A DNA stretch of 38,224 nucleotides from a virus (lineage: Duplodnaviria > Heunggongvirae > Uroviricota > Caudoviricetes): the IMG/VR virus record IMGVR_UViG_2541047899_000010, positions 1-38,224 of that record. One strand, given 5' to 3'. Of the stretch, positions 1 through 38,224 are shown piece by piece. The number at the start of each line of letters is the position of its first letter. The stretch's first letter is position 1. A program made the translations under genes and the position numbers. The notes beneath the pieces are model-generated. The model was not told the origin of the DNA and searched no databases. It saw only the letters and a program-made list of their open reading frames with translations.

Positions 1-63
1 GGTATCCGTTCTGCTGAAGTGTCATGGCGTTGATTTTACGGTGACTCTTCGACAGTGAAAAGA

Positions 64-90
64 AAAAAGGCCGCAGAGCGGCCATAATCA
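64..90 (-). terminator. Rho-independent terminator ending the leftward C-int-cargo transcription unit
   Basis: GC hairpin ggccgc-aga-gcggcc; on the minus strand it is followed by a T-run (tttttcttttc). Lies just downstream of the CDS ending at 193. Confidence 0.55.
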
Positions 91-192: not shown

Positions 193-642
193 TCAGCCAA
201 CAAATTTTGCAATGAAATACGTAGCCGCCGCTGTAAAAAGCGAAGTAAAGATGGCTATACACACAGGTATAATGATGCCACTCAACCGCCACTTCGTATT
301 ATCATCAACTTTGTCAAACCGCCGATTCATCTCATCCATAATCTTGTCAAAGCGTTTATCCATCGCTTCGGCAATCTCACCCTTCAGGCTGTTAATGTCT
401 GATTTGATCTGCTCTTTCAGGTGAGCTGTATCAGATTTAAGCTCACCTTTCAGATTCGCAATATCGCATTTAAGATCACCTTTCAGATTCGCAATGTCTG
501 CTTTGAGCTCACCTTTAACCTCACCAACATCGGCTTTGGTTGAGAGGTTTGTAGTGCGTTCAGCAAGCGTCGCAAGGTCGTTTCTTGTTAGCGATAAATC
601 ACCTTCGAGCCGCTCAATTCGCCTTTCAAGTTTATCTGACAT
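193..642 (-). CDS. Coiled-coil protein with 11-residue repeats and C-terminal transmembrane helix (XhlA/DUF1640-like)
   Basis: ORF 193..735. Start preferred at the ATG at 642 (149 aa) because GGAGG lies 5 nt upstream; the longer form would use GTG at 735 and add a poly-Gly tail. Four to five 11-aa repeats (GELKADIANLK-type) and a hydrophobic C-terminus (IIIPVCIAIFTSLFTAAATYFIA). Function inferred from architecture only. Confidence 0.55.
   Translation of the reverse strand: MSDKLERRIERLEGDLSLTRNDLATLAERTTNLSTKADVGEVKGELKADIANLKGDLKCDIANLKGELKSDTAHLKEQIKSDINSLKGEIAEAMDKRFDKIMDEMNRRFDKVDDNTKWRLSGIIIPVCIAIFTSLFTAAATYFIAKFVG
378..542. repeat. About five degenerate 33-bp tandem repeats inside the coiled-coil gene
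   Basis: Units at 444..476 and 477..509 are near-identical (cacctttcagattcgcaat...), flanked by more diverged copies; they encode the 11-aa repeats. Confidence 0.7.
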
Positions 643-735
643 TCCGCCTCCACTATCACCGCCTCCCCCACCGAAAGAGTTGCCAATGTCCTCACGAATA
701 AGGGTTATGCCATGCTCACTTTTAGCATATGCCAC

Positions 736-1134
736 TCAGATTCCCTCCCAAACTATATATCCTTTGTCTCTTGCCCAACAAACAACTGTGTGGGCTGTAT
801 ATGTGGATGTGAAGCCGCAATAAGAACATGACACTTCATACCGAGTATTGTAGATGTTAATGGGCTCGTTCTCCTTGTGTATGGGAGTGACATATTCCCA
901 ATCATTTGAATCATCATAATCATCAAGTTCAGGGTCTGTGCCGTGAACAACCGTATGTGGAATAAACAAATCTGGGCGCCCACACGAGAGACAAGAGGTT
1001 CTGGCTCCTCTATCTTTAAGGAATTGAATAAATAATTTGGGCGAAATCTGTTGCAGAACCTGCAAATGCCCACGTTCATTATCATTAAGAGACCTGTCTG
1101 CATATGGAAAATCATCAAATTTAAGAGGCTTCAT
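736..1134 (-). CDS. Hypothetical Cys-rich protein (putative zinc ribbon), cargo gene downstream of int
   Basis: ORF 736..1149. ATG at 1134 preferred because GGAG lies 9 nt upstream; this start overlaps the int 3' end by 14 nt. CLSCG and CSYCG cysteine pairs. Its stop at 736..738 directly abuts the GTG at 735 of the next gene. No recognisable family. Confidence 0.5.
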   Translation of the reverse strand: MKPLKFDDFPYADRSLNDNERGHLQVLQQISPKLFIQFLKDRGARTSCLSCGRPDLFIPHTVVHGTDPELDDYDDSNDWEYVTPIHKENEPINIYNTRYEVSCSYCGFTSTYTAHTVVCWARDKGYIVWEGI

Positions 1135-2113
1135 ATAAGGCATCTCCAAGGGGATTAAATCTCACCGCATCCTGCAGGTAATCCGGCGCAAGATGGGCAT
1201 AAATCATCGTTGTCTGAATCTTTGCGTGCCCCAGAATTTTCTGGAGCGTCAGAATATTGCCGCCGTTCATCATGAAATGACTGGCGAAGGTGTGGCGCAG
1301 CGCATGAACAGCCTGGCCGTCAGGAACATCAGGTGCGACCGTTTTGATGACATCGCGAACCAATGGATAATCCAGCGTCGGAAACACCAGTTTCCCGCCC
1401 CGTTTTTTGATCTTTTCAAACAGGCTTTCAGAAATAGGAACGGTACGGTTTTTGCTGTTCTTCGTTTTTGAAAAAGTGATTCGACAATGAAGAACACGGC
1501 GCTGCTCCAGTGCCGCTACCTCGCCCCATCGCGCCCCGGTCGACAGAAGGATTTCGACAGCCAGCCGTTCATCGGGATTTTCAGCCAGTGCATCCAGCAA
1601 CTGAACACATTCAGACTTACTCAGATATCCCATTTCGCGCTCGTTAACCTTCATTCCTTTAAGGCCTTGAACGGGGTTATCGTTAAGAAAATGGCCGGAT
1701 GAGATGAGTGCGGTAAACATCGCGCTTAACGCCCCAATCTCTCGATTTATGGTGCTGGGCTGTATCCCCTGCTCTATCCTGGACACACGTAGCTCGGTGA
1801 GCATCGTTGTATTAAGTTTATGCACGCACGGGTCATCCATTGCCTCACTCAAGCGCAGCAATTTAAGGCGCGTGTTATGCCCTGACTTCATTAGCTGGCC
1901 GTGGTATTTCCACCACAAGTCAATAAGCACTGACAGCGGACGGCGATCAATGGAGTTTCCTTTCCACTCATTGTTATGCTGTTGCGCCAGCACCCACCGC
2001 TCATATAAAACTGCATCCGATTTCGTTTTAAATTTTTTGCGAATGCGTTTGCCTTTACGCCCCTCCGGGCGCATGTCAAGAAGATACCCTCCCGGAATTG
2101 ATTTTATGCTCAT
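1121..2113 (-). CDS. int: Tyrosine site-specific integrase (P2 Int-like)
   Basis: 330 aa from ATG at 2113 (MSIKSIPGGY...). C-terminal catalytic signature HALRHTFASHFMMNGGNILTLQKILGHAKIQTTMIYAHL with the R, H-x-x-R and Y residues of tyrosine recombinases. The upstream part of the 380-aa ORF has no support. Confidence 0.9.
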   Translation of the reverse strand: MSIKSIPGGYLLDMRPEGRKGKRIRKKFKTKSDAVLYERWVLAQQHNNEWKGNSIDRRPLSVLIDLWWKYHGQLMKSGHNTRLKLLRLSEAMDDPCVHKLNTTMLTELRVSRIEQGIQPSTINREIGALSAMFTALISSGHFLNDNPVQGLKGMKVNEREMGYLSKSECVQLLDALAENPDERLAVEILLSTGARWGEVAALEQRRVLHCRITFSKTKNSKNRTVPISESLFEKIKKRGGKLVFPTLDYPLVRDVIKTVAPDVPDGQAVHALRHTFASHFMMNGGNILTLQKILGHAKIQTTMIYAHLAPDYLQDAVRFNPLGDALYEAS

Positions 2114-2162: not shown

Positions 2163-2474
2163 TTAGCCGGGCTGTGTGCCAGTCTTGCGGGGTTTTTGAG
2201 AAGGCGATGTGCTTTTTGGCCCATCAGGGGAGAGAGACGGACTGATCTGCCCAGCAGCCTCATTTGTTTCGTTACTCATCAACCACGTGGTGTATTTTTT
2301 AAAGTTCGGATGCATTGTGATTTTCAGTAAAACCTCCGTCCCCACACCTCTAATACCAGTCTCATATTGCTTAACTGTACCAACCGCAATACCTATTGAA
2401 TCCGCGAACTTTGCCTGGCTAAGTCCCTCAGATTCTCGAATTGCTTTTAGCTTCTTTGATATCTCTATTGACAT
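2163..2474 (-). CDS. C: P2 C-type immunity repressor (HTH)
   Basis: 103 aa from ATG at 2474 (MSIEISKKLKAIRESEGLSQAKFADSIG...). Length and sequence recalled as similar to P2 C, including the C-terminal ...KYTTWLMSNETNEAAGQISP... segment. Sits upstream of int on the same strand as in P2. Confidence 0.85.
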   Translation of the reverse strand: MSIEISKKLKAIRESEGLSQAKFADSIGIAVGTVKQYETGIRGVGTEVLLKITMHPNFKKYTTWLMSNETNEAAGQISPSLSPDGPKSTSPSQKPRKTGTQPG

Positions 2475-9072: not shown

Positions 9073-10032
9073 ATGAAAATTTGTATCGACGACGGCTCCA
9101 CCAACATCAAGCTGGCATGGACTGAGAACGGCGAACGCCGCAACGCCATCAGCCCGAACAGCTTCAAGTCGGAATGGTCTGCGCCGTTCGGTGGCACGCA
9201 GCCCGCGAACTACATGCTTGATGGCGTGCGCTATGGTTTTGATCCGGTCAGCGATCGCTTTGTCCAGACGACCGACACGCAATACCAATACAGCGATGTG
9301 AATGTCATTGCCATTCATCACGCGCTGGTCAAATCAGGCATCACGCCACAGGAGGTGGATGTGGTTGTCACCCTGCCACTGAGCGAGTATTTCGACACAA
9401 ACGCACAGCCGGACATGGCCAACATCAACCGCAAAAAAGCGAACGTTATGCGCCCGGTGGAGTACCAGAACGGCGAAGCATTCACTATCCGTAACGTGCG
9501 GGTTATGCCTGAATCCATTCCGGCTGGCTTTAAGGCACTGGCTGACATGAGTCCGTTTGAATCCCTGCTGATTGTGGATTTGGGCGGAACCACGCTGGAT
9601 GTGGCAAAGGTTCAGGGGCAACTGGCAGGTATCAGCCAGGTGTTTTGCGATCCACACGTAGGCGTTTCTCTGATGGCCGATGCCGTACTGTCGGTGATGG
9701 CCACTAACGGTATGCGCACCAGTCACCACATCGCCAATACCATTATCGAACATCGCCATGATGAAGCCTGGCTGCGCCAGCACATCCACAATGACGCGCA
9801 TTACGACAGCCTGATGGCGGTTATTCGTGAAAAGGAAGAAACACTGAAACAACGAGTGATCCGCGCGCTGGCGGGTTTTTCGGGTTACGGGCGGGTGATG
9901 GTTGTCGGTGGAGGGGCGGAGATTGTGGCACCCGCTATCCGCGAAGCCTGCGGAGTTAATGCGACTTTCATCGCGGACGGGGTGCCACAGTTTGCTCTGG
10001 TCAATGGTTTGTACGCAATGGACAAGGAGTAA
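9073..10032 (+). CDS. parM: ParM/StbA-family actin-like segregation ATPase
   Basis: 319 aa. N-terminus MKICIDDGSTNIKLAW and later YSDVNVIAIHHAL, VDLGGTT and VVGGGA motifs recalled as matching plasmid R1 ParM (actin fold). AAGGAAAA upstream of the ATG. Confidence 0.8.
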   Translation: MKICIDDGSTNIKLAWTENGERRNAISPNSFKSEWSAPFGGTQPANYMLDGVRYGFDPVSDRFVQTTDTQYQYSDVNVIAIHHALVKSGITPQEVDVVVTLPLSEYFDTNAQPDMANINRKKANVMRPVEYQNGEAFTIRNVRVMPESIPAGFKALADMSPFESLLIVDLGGTTLDVAKVQGQLAGISQVFCDPHVGVSLMADAVLSVMATNGMRTSHHIANTIIEHRHDEAWLRQHIHNDAHYDSLMAVIREKEETLKQRVIRALAGFSGYGRVMVVGGGAEIVAPAIREACGVNATFIADGVPQFALVNGLYAMDKE

Positions 10033-10036
10033 ACCA

Positions 10037-10348
10037 ATGACGACACCAACCAGACGGATAAGTTTCTATCTGAAGCCCGCCGCCGTCAAGAACGAAGGCG
10101 AAGCATGCGCCTGGCTGGACAGCCTTACACCAGAAGCCCGCAAAAGCGGCCAACGCGTGGCTTTTCTGGCCGGGCTGGCACTTCTGAAAATGAATCCGGC
10201 AGAGGCTTACCGACTGGCTGCATGGGCTGACGATGAGGCGTTATCAGTGACACAAACCAGGGCAGAACGCCACATGTTACAGACAGCCCCCACCGCACAG
10301 ATAACCAGTCAGATGGCCGGAAATATCCGGGCGTTATTTCCCGATTAG
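10037..10348 (+). CDS. parR: ParR-like adaptor (putative ribbon-helix-helix centromere-binding protein)
   Basis: 103 aa; ATG 7 nt after AAGGAG and 4 nt after the parM stop. The N-terminal RISFYLKP beta-strand pattern resembles R1 ParR (recalled). Confidence 0.55.
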   Translation: MTTPTRRISFYLKPAAVKNEGEACAWLDSLTPEARKSGQRVAFLAGLALLKMNPAEAYRLAAWADDEALSVTQTRAERHMLQTAPTAQITSQMAGNIRALFPD

Positions 10349-10417
10349 AACTTTGCACGGGAGGTTTCCAGTTCTGAAAACAATCAACAAATAAGGAGTC
10401 GAACGTCAAAGATATAA

Positions 10418-10445
10418 GGCCGCCTAGCTGGCGGTCTTGTGTCTT
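10418..10445. terminator. Bidirectional hairpin terminator between convergent parMR and ATPase/Toprim operons
   Basis: ggccgcc-tagc-tggcggtc hairpin with T-rich flanks on both strands. Confidence 0.45.
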
Positions 10446-10478
10446 AAAATATGTTTATCTTAATGAGGACTATTATTT

Positions 10479-10997
10479 TTATAAAAAATAATCATCATGA
10501 GAGGAAACATGAAAATTATAATCTCTCAATTGGGGGATAATCCCTCTACTCCAAAGCAACGTTTTATTTAGTCCAAGTCCATCTAATTTCATCATCCTGT
10601 TGCGCAGCGCAATGAATTCATTCTTGAAGTTATCTGCAGAGATGATCTTTGGGCAAAAACAAGAATACAACTTTCTATTACTTACACCACAAGCATTGGC
10701 AAGCTCATCCTCAAAATTGCTTGTTTGTTGAAATAGGTGGATTGTGTGTTTTTTCGCCTTTAATAGATTGAGATTATTCTTAAATCTATCAAGATTCTCA
10801 ATCCTATCCGTATCAAAAACCACTATGATTTCGCTATTTTCGGTTAATGCTGGCATGTATTTATTTATATTAACATTCCATAAATTAGCAATTACTATTT
10901 TCTTAATAGGATAGCCTAGCAATGTTTTGAAATCCTGAAACAATGCTTTTTCCGTATCTCCCTCAACAAGAATAATAGCAAATTTCTTAACTGCCAT
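10479..10997 (-). CDS. Small Toprim-like protein (DUF4276/RloB-like), putative nuclease partner of the ATPase
   Basis: 172 aa from ATG at 10997, 2 nt after the ATPase stop and preceded by GAGGA. N-terminal ILVEGDTE (conserved Glu) and VVFDTDR (DxD) fit a Toprim-like fold. Locus is markedly AT-rich. Confidence 0.6.
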   Translation of the reverse strand: MAVKKFAIILVEGDTEKALFQDFKTLLGYPIKKIVIANLWNVNINKYMPALTENSEIIVVFDTDRIENLDRFKNNLNLLKAKKHTIHLFQQTSNFEDELANACGVSNRKLYSCFCPKIISADNFKNEFIALRNRMMKLDGLGLNKTLLWSRGIIPQLRDYNFHVSSHDDYFL

Positions 10998-10999
10998 AA

Positions 11000-12199
11000 T
11001 CAATCCTCAAATAGCATCTCTTCGATTAATGAAACGTCAGGTATTGTAGCAAAACAGTCATTTTTTACTTTATTTAAAAGATTGCGATCATTCTTTTTAT
11101 GATGTGTGGTAGCTTCAACAAAAGTGGTTACACCATCTACTTTTTTAGTAAAAGTATATGAATGCGTAGGCAGATCTAAGCTCAAGATATCATAATTATG
11201 TGTGGTGTATATAAATTGACCATATCTGCAAAGCTTAGATATAATCAGCGTGACCATCATTTTTTCTAATTCAGTATGAGTGAAGGCCATTTTCTCATCC
11301 AAAAAGTACACCCCACTGCAAGGGAAATTGAACTCTCGCTCTTCTATTTTATCTTCAAGCACTCCTGACAGGAGATGGGATATTTTTACTGCCTCATAAG
11401 TACCACGAGACAGTCTATCTTTATTTGTTATATCACCTTCCATATCAATAATAACTCTATCTCCATTATTGAAGACTACTGAATAACCCTGCAAATCCTC
11501 CTTTCCCTCATCATCTTTAAGAGTGAGTCCTGAGACAGATTTAACAGTATTGTCAAAGGTTTTTAATATGCTATTAAGCACATTCTTCTTAATTCGTGAT
11601 ATTTTATCCGTGTTCTCTTGGTTTTCAGATAGAATGAAATGCCAACCAAGAACAAAGTCCAAATCCTCTAAATATTGGGAAAATTCTTTTGAGTTAGCGT
11701 TTTCGGTTGAAAAAAATCTATTTTGACCATTTAATTCAAACTTTTGCGCATCCCACACAGCATCCAATCTTTTGGTCGTCTTTGCGCATGATTCCGAGCT
11801 TCTTAAATCAACAGATGCCATTGCAATTTTTTCTACAGCAACAGACTCATCCATAGCCCTAAGCCAGACACCTGCCCTAAACAAACATTTTAAATGACTC
11901 TGGAAAAAGTCAACCTCTATATATGCAGGTTTTCTTTTGTCAGTAATTTTTAACGGTTCTGGATTGAAAACACCACTACTGAGAAAACGCAACACAGAAA
12001 GCATCACGCGACCAAGAGATGTTTTACCAGATGCATTAGCACCAGAAACGATGCAAACCTTTTTGAAGTAGAACTTTTCAAATCCATCAATGTACTCACC
12101 TTCCAGTGAGCTGTTGATCGGGGGTCTGGAGAAGCTTAAGTCAAGGATGCTATTTTCAAAGCAAAACAGATTATCGATTCTGATTTTTGTAAAAGCCAT
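11000..12199 (-). CDS. ABC-type ATPase (AAA_15/AAA_21-like) of a candidate anti-phage module
   Basis: 399 aa. Walker A GANASGKTS, Walker B VYFLDE, H-loop TTHN, with a long helical insert between A and B as in OLD, AriA and AbiL-type ATPases. AAGGTGG upstream of the ATG. AT-rich. Confidence 0.75.
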   Translation of the reverse strand: MAFTKIRIDNLFCFENSILDLSFSRPPINSSLEGEYIDGFEKFYFKKVCIVSGANASGKTSLGRVMLSVLRFLSSGVFNPEPLKITDKRKPAYIEVDFFQSHLKCLFRAGVWLRAMDESVAVEKIAMASVDLRSSESCAKTTKRLDAVWDAQKFELNGQNRFFSTENANSKEFSQYLEDLDFVLGWHFILSENQENTDKISRIKKNVLNSILKTFDNTVKSVSGLTLKDDEGKEDLQGYSVVFNNGDRVIIDMEGDITNKDRLSRGTYEAVKISHLLSGVLEDKIEEREFNFPCSGVYFLDEKMAFTHTELEKMMVTLIISKLCRYGQFIYTTHNYDILSLDLPTHSYTFTKKVDGVTTFVEATTHHKKNDRNLLNKVKNDCFATIPDVSLIEEMLFED

Positions 12200-12377
12200 T
12201 TTGTTCCACCTTTTGGAAGTAAATATTGCTACCTGTTGAGTTTACATGTAATGAGCTGGTAAGCAATACAGGGATTCGATTTAGCGCACAATAGTGCACA
12301 AATTTGCACAATTTTTTTGAACGAATTTTTGCCCTTCTGGCCCGCGTGGCGGCTGGATCCGTCAGGGATCCGTGCGT

Positions 12378-12404
12378 GCACAAAAAAACGCGCTTTTTCT
12401 GCGC
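12378..12404 (-). terminator. Candidate terminator of the leftward Q-P late transcript
   Basis: On the minus strand cgcgc-agaaaaa-gcgcg followed by ttttttt. Confidence 0.4.
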
Positions 12405-12735
12405 GCAGGTGACGGGGGAACAGCCCGCGTTTCAGGGGGTAAATAGCATCCCCTGAACGATGTCGCAGCGACACAACAGAATGGCTGTATTTCTCACGCT
12501 GAGCGTGAAAAAGACGTGAGGGCTTTTGATTTGATGGGGTGGCAGATAAGGCCGTCAAAATCGCACTGAGGCGGCGAGAACATGCAGTCAGCGCGATGGG
12601 ATTGTGTAAGAGTCTGACTGTCGATGATGGCAATCAGCAGGAAAGCATCGTGAAATTATCTGACTGATACAGGAGCTGGAGAGTCGGGGCATAAATTTTT
12701 TATGCCCCGGCGAAGCAGCAGACAAGCGAAGCGCG

Positions 12736-26654: not shown

Positions 26655-27188
26655 TCATTCAGGTTGTTTGGGAAATGTTACTGGCAGGCTGGAGGTGTCT
26701 GTGGATTCGACTTTCTGCGCGTAGAGCATCCACTCTGTTAATTTTTGTTTATTCTCGTCGGAAATGATACCCAGCCGTAGCTGTGAGTCCCATAGCTGGG
26801 TTTTATCCCTGACGAGCTGTAGCAAGCTTTGCTTTTCATTTTCCGCTTGTTGCCTCTGCTCTTCCTCGGTATAAGTTCGCTTTACCACTACGCCATCTTT
26901 GAACATCCATTTACCCGAAATATCAGCCCGGCGATTTGCTGTAATATCAGGTAATTCAACGACGCTTGCGCCTTCTGGATTAATTGCTGAAACATCCTTT
27001 TCAATACAAATAATAACGCCGTTATGGTCATAGACCATTTTCAACGTATCAGACTGGAAATTCTTTTGTTCCTCATACCAGTTTTTTCCATCCTCTGTAT
27101 AAAGCCATTTGATGTTAAATTGCTTTGTTAGCTGATATTGCTCTTTTGTTTTAGGATTGCCAGCAGTAATGTTTTTTAAGTGCATCAT
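26655..27188 (-). CDS. Alternative tail fibre assembly chaperone G' (expressed after inversion)
   Basis: 177 aa; N-terminus [22 protein letters not shown] is near-identical to G for about 22 residues, then diverges. Confidence 0.8.
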   Translation of the reverse strand: MMHLKNITAGNPKTKEQYQLTKQFNIKWLYTEDGKNWYEEQKNFQSDTLKMVYDHNGVIICIEKDVSAINPEGASVVELPDITANRRADISGKWMFKDGVVVKRTYTEEEQRQQAENEKQSLLQLVRDKTQLWDSQLRLGIISDENKQKLTEWMLYAQKVESTDTSSLPVTFPKQPE

Positions 27189-27190
27189 CG

Positions 27191-27904
27191 TTAAATACTC
27201 CCCGCGTTATACCACGTCCCATTAATGCAATACTGAATTGGCCTTGCCTGAGTTGTATCAATTAATTCGTCACGGTTTCCGTTAACTGAACCTGTAACGA
27301 CATAACCTGACTTATCAGACCAACCAGGCCCATTCCATGTTTGAACAGATGACAGTCCTCCTAAACGGACACCTGTAATAAATCGTGAATTACATTCCGC
27401 TTTAGTATATGCACCAACATCTCCTGCTGAAGGTTTTCTGGTGGTGGTGTAAAATTCGGACCAGTCGGCTTCAAAACCATAACCATCACGGGCTGAACGA
27501 TAAAAAATACCGCCATTTTTATAATTAATCCGAAACTGAGCTGCAGGACAACTTCCTTCTCCCATATAAAAATGAATAATTAACGTTGATGCACCACTAA
27601 TAGTTGCGTTATAGGCTCCGCTACTCCAGTTCCATCCAACTGCTTTATCATTCGCAACGGTGCTTCCTGTTTTCCCTAAGGCAAACGCACCAACATGACT
27701 TGCTTTTAATGTGATATCGGAGGAACCATCAAAAGCCACATTGCTTATTTTCCTGGCAGTTTTTAATTTTGCAGCTGTAGAAGCATTGCCGGATAGTTCA
27801 CCAGAAAGGCCACCGCTGAATGTTTGTCGATTAGTCCAGGTATTCGCTGTACTGAGTAACGGTATTTTCTCCCCGCTTGTGCCGAGTTCTCGTAAACCGA
27901 GGTT
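27191..27904 (-). CDS. Alternative tail fibre C-terminal segment Hv' (promoterless, fuses to the H constant part after inversion)
   Basis: The frame is open from 27904 and continuous with the H frame through the crossover site (predicted junction ...IEYLGLRELGTSGEK...). No start codon of its own. The 5' boundary is approximate. Confidence 0.7.
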   Translation of the reverse strand, partial: NLGLRELGTSGEKIPLLSTANTWTNRQTFSGGLSGELSGNASTAAKLKTARKISNVAFDGSSDITLKASHVGAFALGKTGSTVANDKAVGWNWSSGAYNATISGASTLIIHFYMGEGSCPAAQFRINYKNGGIFYRSARDGYGFEADWSEFYTTTRKPSAGDVGAYTKAECNSRFITGVRLGGLSSVQTWNGPGWSDKSGYVVTGSVNGNRDELIDTTQARPIQYCINGTWYNAGSI

Positions 27905-27912
27905 TTAGATAA
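27887..27912. other. Right 26-bp gix/hix-like crossover site
   Basis: TTCTCGTAAACCGAGGTTTTAGATAA; its reverse complement matches the left site at 21 of 26 positions. Confidence 0.8.
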
Positions 27913-27966
27913 TGGCCGTTTCTGACCTGCATGGCATGATTTACGCTTTTGGACGGGAGATTCAGC

Positions 27967-28554
27967 GTGCTGATTGGCTATGTAAGGGTATCAACAAATG
28001 ACCAGAATACAGACCTGCAACGAAACGCTCTTGTTTGTGCAGGATGTGAACAAATATTTGAAGATAAATTAAGCGGGACAAAGACAGACCGACCGGGATT
28101 AAAACGCGCTTTAAAGCGCCTTCAAAAAGGTGACACGCTGGTTGTCTGGAAACTGGATCGCCTCGGGCGAAGCATGAAACATCTGATTTCTCTCGTCGGG
28201 GAACTACGGGAGCGAGGGATTAATTTTCGCAGTCTGACCGACAGCATAGATACATCTTCTCCAATGGGGCGTTTTTTCTTCCACGTGATGGGTGCCCTGG
28301 CTGAAATGGAACGTGAATTAATTGTTGAACGTACACTGGCCGGACTGGCGGCAGCGCGTGCACGGGGGCGCACAGGCGGACGTCGACCGAAGCTGACAAA
28401 AGAACAGCATGAGCAAATAGCAAGGCTGATCAAAAACGGGCACGACAGAAAACAACTGGCAATAATTTACGGCATTGGTATATCGACGATTTATCGTTAC
28501 CACCCCGCAGGAGAATCAAGCGGAACAATAGAGAAGAGTCAGGAAACAAAATAA
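27967..28554 (+). CDS. Serine DNA invertase (Gin/Hin/Cin/Pin family)
   Basis: GTG start giving (M)LIGYVRVSTNDQNTDLQRNAL with the catalytic Ser in the canonical position; C-terminal HTH (GISTIYRY). About 195 aa. Adjacent to the right crossover site. Confidence 0.9.
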   Translation: MLIGYVRVSTNDQNTDLQRNALVCAGCEQIFEDKLSGTKTDRPGLKRALKRLQKGDTLVVWKLDRLGRSMKHLISLVGELRERGINFRSLTDSIDTSSPMGRFFFHVMGALAEMERELIVERTLAGLAAARARGRTGGRRPKLTKEQHEQIARLIKNGHDRKQLAIIYGIGISTIYRYHPAGESSGTIEKSQETK

Positions 28555-35791: not shown

Positions 35792-37375
35792 ATGGCAAGT
35801 AAAGCTAACCTTGTTAATTTGGATGCGATGATTTCAAGAGAGGATTTCTCTGCTCAATCCGATAATGATTTATCTTTCGAATCTATACAAAATATAGCTA
35901 TGAGAGATATCGGAATGTTGTCTGGCCTACTCAGAAAACCAGATTTTCAGAGAGAAACAAATCACTGGACTCCAGAGCAAGTAGTTTCATTACTAAAGAG
36001 TTTTGTCACAGGTGATTTAATACCATCCGTGATTTTATGGAAGAGTTCTTTTGTGTTTGTTATAGACGGTGGTCATAGACTTAGTGTTTTAAGAGCATGG
36101 AAAGAAAATGACTATGGTGATGGCACTATATCGCAAAAATTCTTTGGAAATAGTATTTCCGGAGAGCAAAGAAAGATCGCACAAAAAACAAGAGAATTGG
36201 TTGACTCCACAGTTGGTAAATGGTCTGAGATAGAAAGAAAAATGCAGGATTCTAATAATGACCATGATGAGAGTAGAAGGCTTACAAATATTTACGTAAG
36301 GGCTTTGCAAGTCCAGTGGGTTAAAGGTGATTCCGATAAGGCAGAAACGTCTTTTTTCAATATAAATAAAAAAGGTACTCCTTTAGATGAGGTTGAGGAA
36401 ACTTTACTTAGGCATAGGAAGAAACCTATATCTATCGCTGCGAGAGCAATAATACGAGCAGGAAAAGGACATAGATACTGGTCCTCTTTCCCTGAGGATA
36501 AGACTAAAAAGATAGAAGAGCTTTCCTCAAATATAAACTCCTCTCTTTTCGATCCAGACGTTAAATCTCAAATTAAAACACTCGATCTACCTCTGGGTGG
36601 CTCACGCGGTGTGAGGTTAGCTCTTGATATCTTAATAGATCTTATGTCTATTTCCGTGTCCCAGAGCGAAAATTATCAAAAAGAATTGCTTAATCAAATC
36701 GAAGATTCAGATGGAAGCGAAACTGTTGTTGTTCTGGAAAAAACCGCAAAATTACTAAATTGGATTACTGGAAATGACAAGGGCAGCTTAGGATTACATC
36801 CGGCCGTGTATTTTTATAGTGCATCAGGCAGACATGTGAATCCTATGTTTTTAGGGACGACTCTGTTTATAGCGAAAAAATTAAAATTTAATGATAAGAA
36901 CTTCTTCAAAAAATTCACAAGTATTAGGTTTAATTTAGAGAAAACTCTAATAAACAATAAGTCTATGCTAGCATCGTTAGTGAACAGAGCAGGACATAAG
37001 AAAAGAACTGAGTATTACTCTAATTTATTTGAGTCAATGATTGATTTCCTTCTTGAGGTAAAAAAGAAAGACAAAAGCATGAGTGATTTCAGCCTTACAG
37101 AAAGTGAAATACTCCAGCTTGCTCACTTTGAAGGTAATATCCTATCTGGGACAAGTATCAGCAATGCAACTAAAATTAGTGAGGAAGCGAAGAATGCTGT
37201 ATTCATTGATACTGCATTAGCTTCAGCAATTACATGTCCTATCTGCCAGGGATATTTAGATCCTTCAAAATCTGTCTCATATGATCACATCAAAAGAGTT
37301 GCAGATGGTGGTAAAGGTTCGGCAAAAAATACTCAGTTAACTCACCCGTATTGCAATATGTCTGTCAAAAATTAG
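35792..37375 (+). CDS. GmrSD/DUF262-DUF1524-like protein: N-terminal ParB-like NTPase domain fused to C-terminal HNH nuclease (candidate type IV restriction or defence enzyme)
   Basis: 527 aa in an AT-rich island. N-terminal DUF262 hallmarks (PDFQRE...W then VIDGGHR, equivalent to the DGQQR motif). C-terminal His-Me finger (CPICQGY...DHIKRVADGG...NTQLTHPYCN). Confidence 0.7.
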   Translation: MASKANLVNLDAMISREDFSAQSDNDLSFESIQNIAMRDIGMLSGLLRKPDFQRETNHWTPEQVVSLLKSFVTGDLIPSVILWKSSFVFVIDGGHRLSVLRAWKENDYGDGTISQKFFGNSISGEQRKIAQKTRELVDSTVGKWSEIERKMQDSNNDHDESRRLTNIYVRALQVQWVKGDSDKAETSFFNINKKGTPLDEVEETLLRHRKKPISIAARAIIRAGKGHRYWSSFPEDKTKKIEELSSNINSSLFDPDVKSQIKTLDLPLGGSRGVRLALDILIDLMSISVSQSENYQKELLNQIEDSDGSETVVVLEKTAKLLNWITGNDKGSLGLHPAVYFYSASGRHVNPMFLGTTLFIAKKLKFNDKNFFKKFTSIRFNLEKTLINNKSMLASLVNRAGHKKRTEYYSNLFESMIDFLLEVKKKDKSMSDFSLTESEILQLAHFEGNILSGTSISNATKISEEAKNAVFIDTALASAITCPICQGYLDPSKSVSYDHIKRVADGGKGSAKNTQLTHPYCNMSVKN

Positions 37376-38083: not shown

Positions 38084-38224
38084 ATGTCGCAAAAATCGCT
38101 TACGGCCATCACGTTCTGCGTGACGGCAATCCTCATCATCTGGATGCTGCACGGTTCGCTGTGCGAAATACGGATGAGCTTCTGGGGAGCGGAGTTTGCG
38201 GCGTTCTTACAGTGTAAGCAGTAA
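38084..38224 (+). CDS. hok: Hok/Gef-family type I toxin (small membrane peptide)
   Basis: 46 aa, not in the ORF track (below cutoff). TM helix then SLCEIR...EFAAFL, the Hok/Gef signature (compare R1 Hok ...SLCEIRYRDGHREVAAF...). AGGAG 7 nt upstream. The stop is the last codon of the window. Confidence 0.6.
   Translation: MSQKSLTAITFCVTAILIIWMLHGSLCEIRMSFWGAEFAAFLQCKQ

Follow-up and report, generated by a model that had tools for sequence, protein, structure and literature searches.

The DNA stretch analyzed in this work (38,224 nucleotides (nt), IMG/VR record IMGVR_UViG_2541047899_000010; hereinafter, the window) carries a P2-like prophage located between the btuC and ihfA genes of Escherichia coli. 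Two small genes, designated A and B, lie on its minus strand between the integrase gene int and the attachment (att) site, and the conclusion that this pair is a genuine, conserved and mobile two-gene module of temperate phages, occupying a lysogeny-expressed position inside the prophage, is well supported. Judging from its position, its architecture and one adjacency to an AbiJ-like gene, the A–B module is a good candidate for a phage-exclusion system. The first-pass annotation of the window, made from the sequence alone, had described two minus-strand open reading frames (ORFs) downstream of int, and both their coordinates and their layout were recovered from the ORF list and the sequence.

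Location and distribution of the A–B gene pair

The features of the locus were as follows (aa, amino acids):
736–1134, minus strand: gene A, encoding an acidic soluble protein of 132 aa in which four cysteines are invariant (ORF list; phrog_4293, 2.5e-30)
193–735, minus strand: gene B, encoding a 180-aa tail-anchored DUF1640/CCDC90-like coiled-coil protein, GTG start (ORF list, PF07798, phrog_9415)
84–192, no strand: phage arm of att, which separates the core from the end of gene B and is common to prophages with different cargo
59–83, no strand: attL core, 25 bp, AAAGAAAAAAGGCCGCAGAGCGGCC, identical in attL, attR (L003 7110–7135) and the empty attB (L004)
Stem 69–83, T-run 59–68, minus strand: intrinsic terminator hairpin, which is the ihfA terminator (terminator scan; also present after ihfA where the site is empty)
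1121–2113, minus strand: P2-type tyrosine integrase (Int_N 1.6e-28, Phage_integrase 8e-20; DEC5B annotation); its exact start is uncertain, being placed at 2074 by PGAP
2163–2474, minus strand: C-type immunity repressor, with which the leftward lysogenic operon begins (HTH_3 1.5e-9, phrog_147 2e-32, DEC5B annotation)

A B-type gene was found directly after gene A at every A-family locus with enough sequence. The neighbourhoods covered were those of a Klebsiella phage-like record, Salmonella, K. aerogenes, one further contig, Citrobacter, chromosomal islets of Rahnella and Citrobacter, Raoultella and its relatives, a P22-like contig, Enterobacter phage ENT1, which is a cultured phage carrying A–B, 27 IMG/VR contigs, and RM9872-type E. 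coli prophages. The B-type partners had a common build, namely, a short tail, a Gly/Asp-rich run, a Met residue, a helical segment of the LERRVExLE type, in most cases an ATK motif, a stalk that varies, and a hydrophobic helix at the C-terminus.

Across these loci, the two genes abut or overlap by 1–36 nt, which suggests translational coupling. In the window, the GTG start codon of gene B (733–735, with GGGAGGG 7 nt upstream) immediately adjoins the TGA stop codon of gene A (736–738), as the first-pass annotation had it. Gene A, in turn, starts at ATG 1132–1134 with GGAG 9 nt upstream, a start supported by its relatives, all of which begin with MK(P/T), and the overlap of gene A with the 3′ end of int that had been noticed earlier amounts to 14 nt over the int stop codon (1121–1123). 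The dN/dS ratio was 0.19–0.30 for gene A and 0.09–0.38 for gene B, and this purifying selection on both genes, together with their recurrence in many phages, indicates that A–B is not a chance ORF pair. A read-through fusion of A and B was also considered and rejected: the genes are in the same frame with one TGA between them in the window, L007 and L008, but overlap in different frames in L006, L009, L012 and others.

Four arrangements of the pair were found. The order int–A–B–att was characteristic of the window, of loci L005–L008 and of L048; it is found at three chromosomal sites besides that of the window, in Salmonella, K. aerogenes and other hosts. In 186-/P2-like prophages (L009, L019, L042, L044, L046 and L049), the repressor gene C was followed by other small genes and then by A, B and int with overlapping stops and starts, and in phage contigs of the L019 type int was followed by ogr and D. 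In ENT1, a cI gene (HTH_3 and Peptidase_S24), divergent from a cro-like gene, is followed by A and B, so that the pair occupies the place of rexA–rexB in lambda. Finally, A–B lies beside ant- or Bro-type genes in the P22-like contig (L022/L023, between the injection genes and the tailspike gene) and in L050. According to gene order, all four arrangements are places of lysogen-expressed genes. Non-phage occurrences of the pair were represented by the Rahnella and Citrobacter chromosomal islets (L012 and L014). The pair is rare: of the 5426 complete E. coli genomes, 39 contained the B gene and 14 matched over the full 1–1200 stretch.

The boundaries of the prophage were established by comparison with the host chromosome. 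The nearest genome was that of O55:H7 DEC5B (99.4% identity over 1–1200), in which btuC lies immediately to the left of the window and the far prophage end carries ogr and a hok/gef gene, followed by ihfA. Positions 1–83 of the window were present in all 5426 complete E. coli genomes, most of which matched there only, and where the site is empty, btuC adjoins ihfA (junction sequence ...gtgaaaagaaaaaaggccgcagagcggcctttttagttag...). Since the host match ends at 83 and the core is repeated at attR and attB, genes A and B belong to the prophage, where they are flanked by int and the phage arm of att. Thus, attL, mapped at 59–83, does not separate int from A–B, and the earlier view of the two genes as prophage cargo and not host genes is upheld. 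The supposition that they are host genes, or a remnant of another element outside the prophage, is refuted by this mapping and has a probability close to nil; it also disagrees with the position of the pair after int at the three other chromosomal sites and in the L019-type contigs mentioned above, and nothing was found in its favour. The attR site lies ~270 bp past the right window end, and the window therefore does not include the complete prophage.

The extent of the insert was determined from its flanks. E. coli 95NR1 and C3 matched the window at 1–193 only (94–95% identity), followed by an unrelated 123-aa ORF, and the similarity of int to its relatives ends at ~1143; since the 1–193 segment is thus shared by prophages with other cargo, the insert corresponds to ~193–1143. 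Its G+C content was 0.42–0.47, slightly under that of int (about 0.50). To our knowledge, P2 itself has nothing between int and attP. This att site is not mentioned in the 2011 paper on P2 regulatory regions. It should be noted that the att core is the rho-independent terminator of ihfA, located in the region upstream of btuC, and that the hairpin is regenerated at both junctions on integration.

The terminator that had been claimed at 64–90 is a real hairpin, but it is the terminator of the host gene ihfA within the att core; it is also the first terminator-like site downstream of int–A–B. A crude consensus scan from the C promoter region to this hairpin revealed no minus-strand promoter-like site and no further terminator-like site, and a divergent promoter-like site was located on the plus strand at 2468–2497. 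A–B most likely belongs to the C–int–A–B transcript of the lysogen, ending at the att-core hairpin. For the membership in the lysogenic C–int transcript that had been proposed initially, synteny (the C–A–B–int order and the post-cI position) offers good support.

The genes accompanying A–B at other loci were also described. In the P2-like IMG/VR contig L048 (5242–7107), int, A and B are followed by a 288-aa gene without matches, a 300-aa AbiJ-like gene (AbiJ_NTD4, Abi_C and DUF7014) and host DNA. In prophages with the C–A–B–int order, a protein of ~200 aa with a C-terminal hydrophobic end is often encoded between C and A (Flk_N match in L019–L021), as are small secreted or lipoprotein-like ORFs (L019 3074–3973, L042 3370–4005, L046 2708–3800 and L049 2653–3951). 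The genes between C and A look like a multi-gene cargo array within the lysogenic operon. The int–att interval of P2 has been described as a minor defence hotspot with 3% of P2 systems (2026 preprint, 10.64898/2026.02.27.708500), and a cI–int hotspot is known in K139-like phages (Rousset et al., PMC9122126).

Proteins A and B and their joint exchange

Profile searches with gene A revealed no Pfam, NCBIfam or PADLOC family, and a match to phrog_4293, a family of unknown function, was obtained (E = 2.5e-30). The earlier statement that no known family is recognized is accordingly retained for A, with the exception of this PHROG, and not for B, which is DUF1640/CCDC90-like. Nine relatives of A were found by a word-indexed search, and an exhaustive profile search over 1.84 billion entries yielded 79 cluster representatives at E ≤ 0.001. 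The paired CxxC motifs proposed for A in the first-pass annotation proved to be fixed: residues C48, C51, C103, C106 and W120 were invariant in 75 diverse relatives, the identity of which to the query went down to ~20%, and G107 was nearly invariant. The family consensus was VTPELFxxFL...CxxCG...P...YV...YxxxCxNCG...V..W.E, and the knuckles were located as follows:
982–993, minus strand: first CxxC knuckle of A (C48 and C51), invariant in 75 sequences
817–828, minus strand: second CxxC knuckle of A (C103 and C106, then G107), invariant or nearly invariant in 75 sequences

An AlphaFold2 model of A constructed from an alignment of 23 sequences (pLDDT 85, pTM 0.79) superseded an earlier one based on 10 close sequences (pLDDT 67). 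It includes two N-terminal helices, a small sheet bearing both cysteine knuckles, with strands flanking each of them, and a C-terminal helix. The modelled protein thus has the two conserved CxxC knuckles joined by beta hairpins by which zinc ribbons are recognized. Fold searches revealed no structural relatives of A, giving only non-significant matches to ribbons of the TFIIS and NrdR types, and a sequence search of solved structures gave only coiled-coil or zinc-knuckle noise. Taken together, the alignment and the model point to A as a zinc-ribbon-like protein of a new small family with predicted metal binding, in which the four invariant cysteines probably hold one zinc ion. Protein A has a pI of 5.1 and no hydrophobic segment; the median pI of the family is 5.3 and its median charge is −4.4, and given such acidity the binding of nucleic acid by protein A is unlikely.

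Protein B consists of the following parts:
673–735, minus strand: N-terminal tail of B, residues 1–21, MAYAKSEHGITLIREDIGNSF, proposed docking peptide for A (in-frame conservation; swapped with A)
640–672, minus strand: glycine-rich linker of B (residues 22–31) and the codon of the invariant Met32 (640–642), candidate internal start with GGAGG 4 nt upstream
526–543, minus strand: beta-layer motif STKADV, residues 65–70, which fits the stalk-start motif of DUF1640 (FATKSD or FATKAD in relatives)
313–510, minus strand: stalk of 11-residue (33-nt) repeats, residues 76–141 (TRF; register of 11; copy number variable between strains)
208–279, minus strand: sole membrane helix, residues 153–176, with 4 residues after it (Kyte–Doolittle 19-residue maximum of 2.19 at residue 153)

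The best Pfam match of B was PF07798, CCDC90-like/DUF1640 (E = 2.5e-6, 27.9 bits, under the gathering threshold of 33.5), and its match to phrog_9415 had an E-value of 2e-15; relatives of B with 59–93% identity have precomputed PF07798 matches and the NCBI names DUF1640/CCDC90. An NCBIfam search gave nothing meaningful for the A–B pair. With the DUF1640/CCDC90 family (PF07798), which includes the mitochondrial proteins MCUR1 and CCDC90B, protein B shares the coiled-coil stalk, the single C-terminal anchor and the ATK-type beta-layer motif at the start of the stalk, described by Hartmann et al. (PMC4786415) as [aliphatic]-A-T-K-[polar]-[DE]; it differs from this family in scoring under the Pfam threshold, in the absence of a globular head and in having only a tail of ~20 residues and a glycine linker. 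On balance, B probably belongs to the DUF1640/CCDC90 family. In the searchable literature, no description of DUF1640 paired with a four-cysteine protein was found, nor was any bacterial member with a known function. A plasmid search revealed no homologue of A and, for B, only distant DUF1640 and Bdr matches.

The 11-aa repeats, the coiled coil and the C-terminal transmembrane helix that had been attributed to B in the first-pass annotation are real, but the repeats form the coiled coil and not the membrane helix. The label "XhlA-like" given to B at that stage should be replaced by DUF1640/CCDC90-like, since the match to XhlA (PF10779) reached only 16.8 bits (E = 0.0077) against a gathering threshold of 34.7. 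The C-terminal membrane helix of B, together with weak matches to XhlA (E = 0.008), to a hemolysin-annotated PHROG and to Rz-like spanin PHROGs, might speak for an accessory lysis function similar to that of XhlA, a holin or a spanin; however, all these matches are far under the cut-offs and fall within coiled-coil segments, and A–B is located in the leftward lysogenic operon, remote from the lysis genes, and elsewhere between repressor and integrase. With sub-threshold matches and the wrong operon, this identity was rejected as highly improbable.

The helical segment of B begins at Met32 (MSDKLERRIERLE...), and from about residue 76 to residue 141 the protein is in a register of 11, in agreement with the tandem repeat detected by TRF at 414–516 (period 33, 3.1 copies). 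The number of 33-nt repeats varies between otherwise near-identical alleles, the lengths being 112, 123, 134, 145 and 156 aa, as well as 170, 181 and 192 aa. Distant B partners have stalks composed of quite different repeats; in the partner encoded in L046 (4329–4967), these are six tandem nine-residue ATKADLQxF units, i.e., copies of the beta-layer motif and not 11-residue repeats. A C-terminal hydrophobic segment was present in all B partner proteins. Since B has no signal peptide and is anchored at its C-terminus, we infer that the stalk should be in the cytoplasm.

PGAP annotates only the short form of gene B (193–642), which starts at Met32. The tail-coding part preceding it also had dN < dS and indels in multiples of 3, and hence, according to the pattern of substitutions, the long GTG-started form of B is translated as well. 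Whether Met32 serves as a second start was assessed from the sequence around it. A Met residue directly follows the glycine run in 17 of 17 parsed B homologues, and GGAGG is found 4–9 nt upstream of this internal ATG in 12 of them, with a G run there in most of the others. Synonymous reshuffling of seven codons with E. coli usage gave an expectation of 4.2 ± 1.7 of 17, and the number 12 was reached in none of the 5000 trials; the homologues are not independent, which weakens the shuffle test, and by eye GGAGG occurs in roughly 9 of about 11 distinct lineages. The explanation of GGAGG as a by-product of the glycine codons was rejected on the strength of this comparison (4.2/17 expected, 12/17 observed), with the same reservation for related sequences. 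Codon choice retaining GGAGG before Met32 suggests an internal start and, as a candidate product, a tail-less B alongside full-length B.

A natural exchange of A together with the tail of B was revealed at the same att site:
664–1143, minus strand: exchange unit, the whole of A with ~24 codons from the start of B, substituted en bloc in RM9872-type prophages

In a blastn comparison of the window with L015, segment 1–663 was 91.7% identical and segment 1144–2299 was 98.4% identical, with no match in 664–1143. The same block replacement (L015 4152–4741) was found in prophages of the RM9872, O157 and O103 types, with flanks 92–98% identical. The replacement block encodes a 166-aa A-family member, roughly 22% identical, and a different B tail (MGNAARNLF...). 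The breakpoints of the swap coincide with the glycine linker of B and the 3′ end of int, and the joint replacement shows that A and the B tail travel as one unit. Such a swap would be expected if the tail of B is the predicted docking site of A, and it may also be explained by plain adjacency. As a side effect, the C-terminus of the integrase varies with the cassette (...RFNPLGDALYEAS in the window, positions 1121–1143, the last ~8 codons, vs. ...RFNPLGGM in the RM9872 type), which means that the cassette junction rewrites the C-terminus of Int (int ORF of L015, 4734–5861).

Possible function of the module

By analogy with known prophage systems, A–B may be a lysogen-expressed exclusion or abortive-infection module with RexAB-like logic, a reading to which we would give not quite an even chance. 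Classic exclusion systems such as rexAB, sieA/B and glo of K139 come from prophage immunity operons. The A–B pair would then be a self-contained accessory (moron) module inserted behind int, ahead of the phage arm of attP; in the lysogen, it would be expressed from the distal part of the C–int transcript, which would terminate at the att-core hairpin. Protein A would be a small acidic cytoplasmic protein, probably with one zinc ion, and protein B would be held in the inner membrane by its single C-terminal helix, with the stalk of 11-residue repeats projecting into the cytoplasm. This stalk, probably trimeric, would be capped by the flexible glycine-rich linker and the N-terminal tail of ~20 residues; the published structures of MCUR1 and CCDC90B are reportedly trimeric. 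Docking of A on the N-terminal tail of B would place it at the tip of the membrane-anchored stalk, and the internal start at Met32 would give rise to tail-less B, so that the ratio of the long and short forms would set the number of docking sites per stalk. Two options can be proposed for the action of the pair: either A is a sensor or regulator and B a membrane effector, protecting the lysogen by abortive infection of the RexA/RexB kind, or both proteins interfere with incoming DNA at the inner membrane (exclusion). In this scheme, we infer co-transcription, zinc binding, A–B contact, oligomeric state, topology and the anti-phage role alike.

The fullest version of this proposal, namely, that A–B is an unrecognized anti-phage system of P2-like, lambdoid and P22-like phages in which a zinc-ribbon sensor sits at the tip of a variable stalk and a dual start determines its docking valency, is rather doubtful. 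If A–B is an anti-phage system, it would provide the first functional handle on bacterial DUF1640 and possibly on Bdr proteins and the fold shared with MCUR1/CCDC90B. Members of the DUF1640/CCDC90 family occur in both bacteria and mitochondria, with no function known for the bacterial ones, and a functional handle on B would therefore be useful beyond phage biology. The pair recurs in immunity-operon or int–att positions of at least three types of temperate phages and matches no characterized system; it is small (about 0.95 kb) and easily cloned, so that the question of defence is directly testable, and concrete, falsifiable predictions about the fit between A and B follow from the dual start that B appears to have and from the joint natural swap of A and the B tail. 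The same prophage carries other defence-type cargo, i.e., an AbiL-like pair, a GmrSD-like gene and hok.

Several observations weigh against an anti-phage role or against parts of the scheme. No homology link of A–B to known defence systems was found: PADLOC-DB 2.0.0 contained no family for A, and for B it gave only weak coiled-coil matches (ZorA tail, LmuB and LeoBC; E ≥ 2.6e-5). Neither the accessions nor the family names of A–B occur in the supplementary data of DefensePredictor or of the 2026 preprint on P2/P4 hotspots, and a literature search on DUF1640/CCDC90 with phage or defence gave nothing relevant. The non-phage loci L012 and L014 are located outside obvious defence islands. Since B has essentially no periplasmic part, events outside the membrane would not be sensed by it, and the free variation of stalk length argues against a strict ruler function. 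The argument for co-transcription from the crude scan, which had no consensus promoter or terminator, is weak.

Among the known systems, lambda RexA/RexB is similar in logic, being a pair of soluble and membrane proteins, and in ENT1 A–B is found in exactly the post-cI place. In lambda lysogens, rexAB is co-transcribed with the repressor gene. RexB, which crosses the membrane several times, differs in this from B with its one tail-anchor helix. RexA binds DNA and CI (10.1101/2021.04.19.439022), whereas A is acidic. Searches in Pfam, PHROGs and PADLOC and fold searches revealed no sequence or fold similarity between RexA/RexB and A–B.

The same position is compatible with a different role, in which A–B modulates the lysis–lysogeny switch of the phage or the envelope physiology of the host (lysogenic conversion) instead of defence; for example, the repressor, Int or another regulator might be the binding partner of A, and B might sequester A at the membrane. 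The constant location of A–B beside repressor and integrase genes agrees with such a role, as does the behaviour of lambda RexA: the product of this equivalently placed gene binds CI and helps lambda to switch to lytic growth (10.1101/2021.04.19.439022). MCUR1 and CCDC90B, to which B is related among eukaryotic proteins, are described as membrane scaffolds, and the Borrelia Bdr proteins, which are of similar build and prophage-borne, have no known defence role. Nevertheless, A–B is accessory and rare, and it is found with unrelated repressors (P2 C, 186-like and lambdoid cI) and in the phage-free loci L012 and L014, which disfavours a specific partner in the switch; we regard this role as unlikely.

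Less likely still is an addiction (toxin–antitoxin) module in which the prophage would be stabilized by B as a toxin damaging the membrane and by A as its labile neutralizer. The small size and coupling of the two genes, the first of which encodes an acidic soluble protein and the second a membrane protein, and the mobility of the pair between phages and chromosomal islets correspond to this organization, and a hok/gef gene is present at the opposite end of the same prophage; against it are the single tail-anchored helix and the long polar stalk, which are atypical of a pore-forming toxin, and the absence of matches to toxin–antitoxin families in Pfam, PADLOC and NCBIfam searches. Many toxin–antitoxin modules double as defences, so this explanation overlaps with that of an exclusion or abortive-infection module.

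Returning to exclusion or abortive infection as the preferred reading, the products of genes gp30/gp31 of the mycobacteriophages Butters (PMC7542560) and Sbash (PMC6426596) are lysogen-expressed, represent a cytoplasmic protein interacting with a membrane protein, and are encoded near the integration/immunity cassette. They resemble A–B as two-component systems that combine a soluble with a membrane protein. The proteins are unrelated, as are the hosts and the phages, and the role of gp30/gp31 is supported experimentally, whereas that of A–B is proposed.

Zorya provides another parallel: ZorA is a multi-pass motor subunit with a pentameric tail of ~70 nm, the shortening of which abolishes function, and has soluble partners (PMC11946911). 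Like this tail, B is a membrane-anchored long coiled coil directed into the cytoplasm, and it has a weak match to the ZorA tail (E = 2.6e-5); unlike ZorA, it lacks a motor and has a single helix, and its stalk is much shorter and varies freely in length. The match is due to coiled-coil composition and not to homology.

The Bdr proteins of Borrelia, encoded in cp32 prophages, the function of which is unknown (PMC10016077), are similar to B in being prophage-borne, inner-membrane-associated and repetitive, with a C-terminal hydrophobic end. In a tblastn comparison, the similarity (E = 1e-6, identity = 37.6%) covered only residues 73–167 of B, i.e., the repeats and the anchor, and it may be largely compositional; there was no Bdr model among the NCBIfam matches of B. 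The hosts and phages are unrelated, and no A-like gene was found beside the one Bdr gene inspected, a B-like gene of Borrelia turcica lp27 (L051 1869–2276) that is located between the genes for the phage terminase large subunit and the portal protein.

Other cargo of the prophage

Cargo genes were found in several other parts of the prophage. The end opposite to A–B contains a gene of the Hok/Gef toxin family between ogr and attR (38085–38224), the ORF of which ends at the window end. An A+T-rich 527-aa gene between gene D and ogr (35792–37375) had a match to GmrSD_N (E = 8.7e-13) and none in PADLOC; its RefSeq annotation is a GmrSD restriction endonuclease domain protein. Several cargo genes occupy the classic hotspot of P2 that is flanked by the replication gene and the portal-side genes (9073–12633), including one for a ParM-like actin (StbA_N and ParM_N, E = 1e-82), a plasmid-partition actin that is unusual in a P2-like prophage, an AbiL-type pair encoding a 399-aa ATPase (PADLOC AbiLi, 3e-27) and a 174-aa partner, and a 134-aa ORF without matches. 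A gene for a Hin/Cin-type invertase (Resolvase and HTH_7, 27949–28554) adjoins the oppositely oriented genes for the C-terminal part of the tail fibre and for tail-fibre assembly (26655–27739), and this gene order suggests an invertible host-range segment at 26655–28554.

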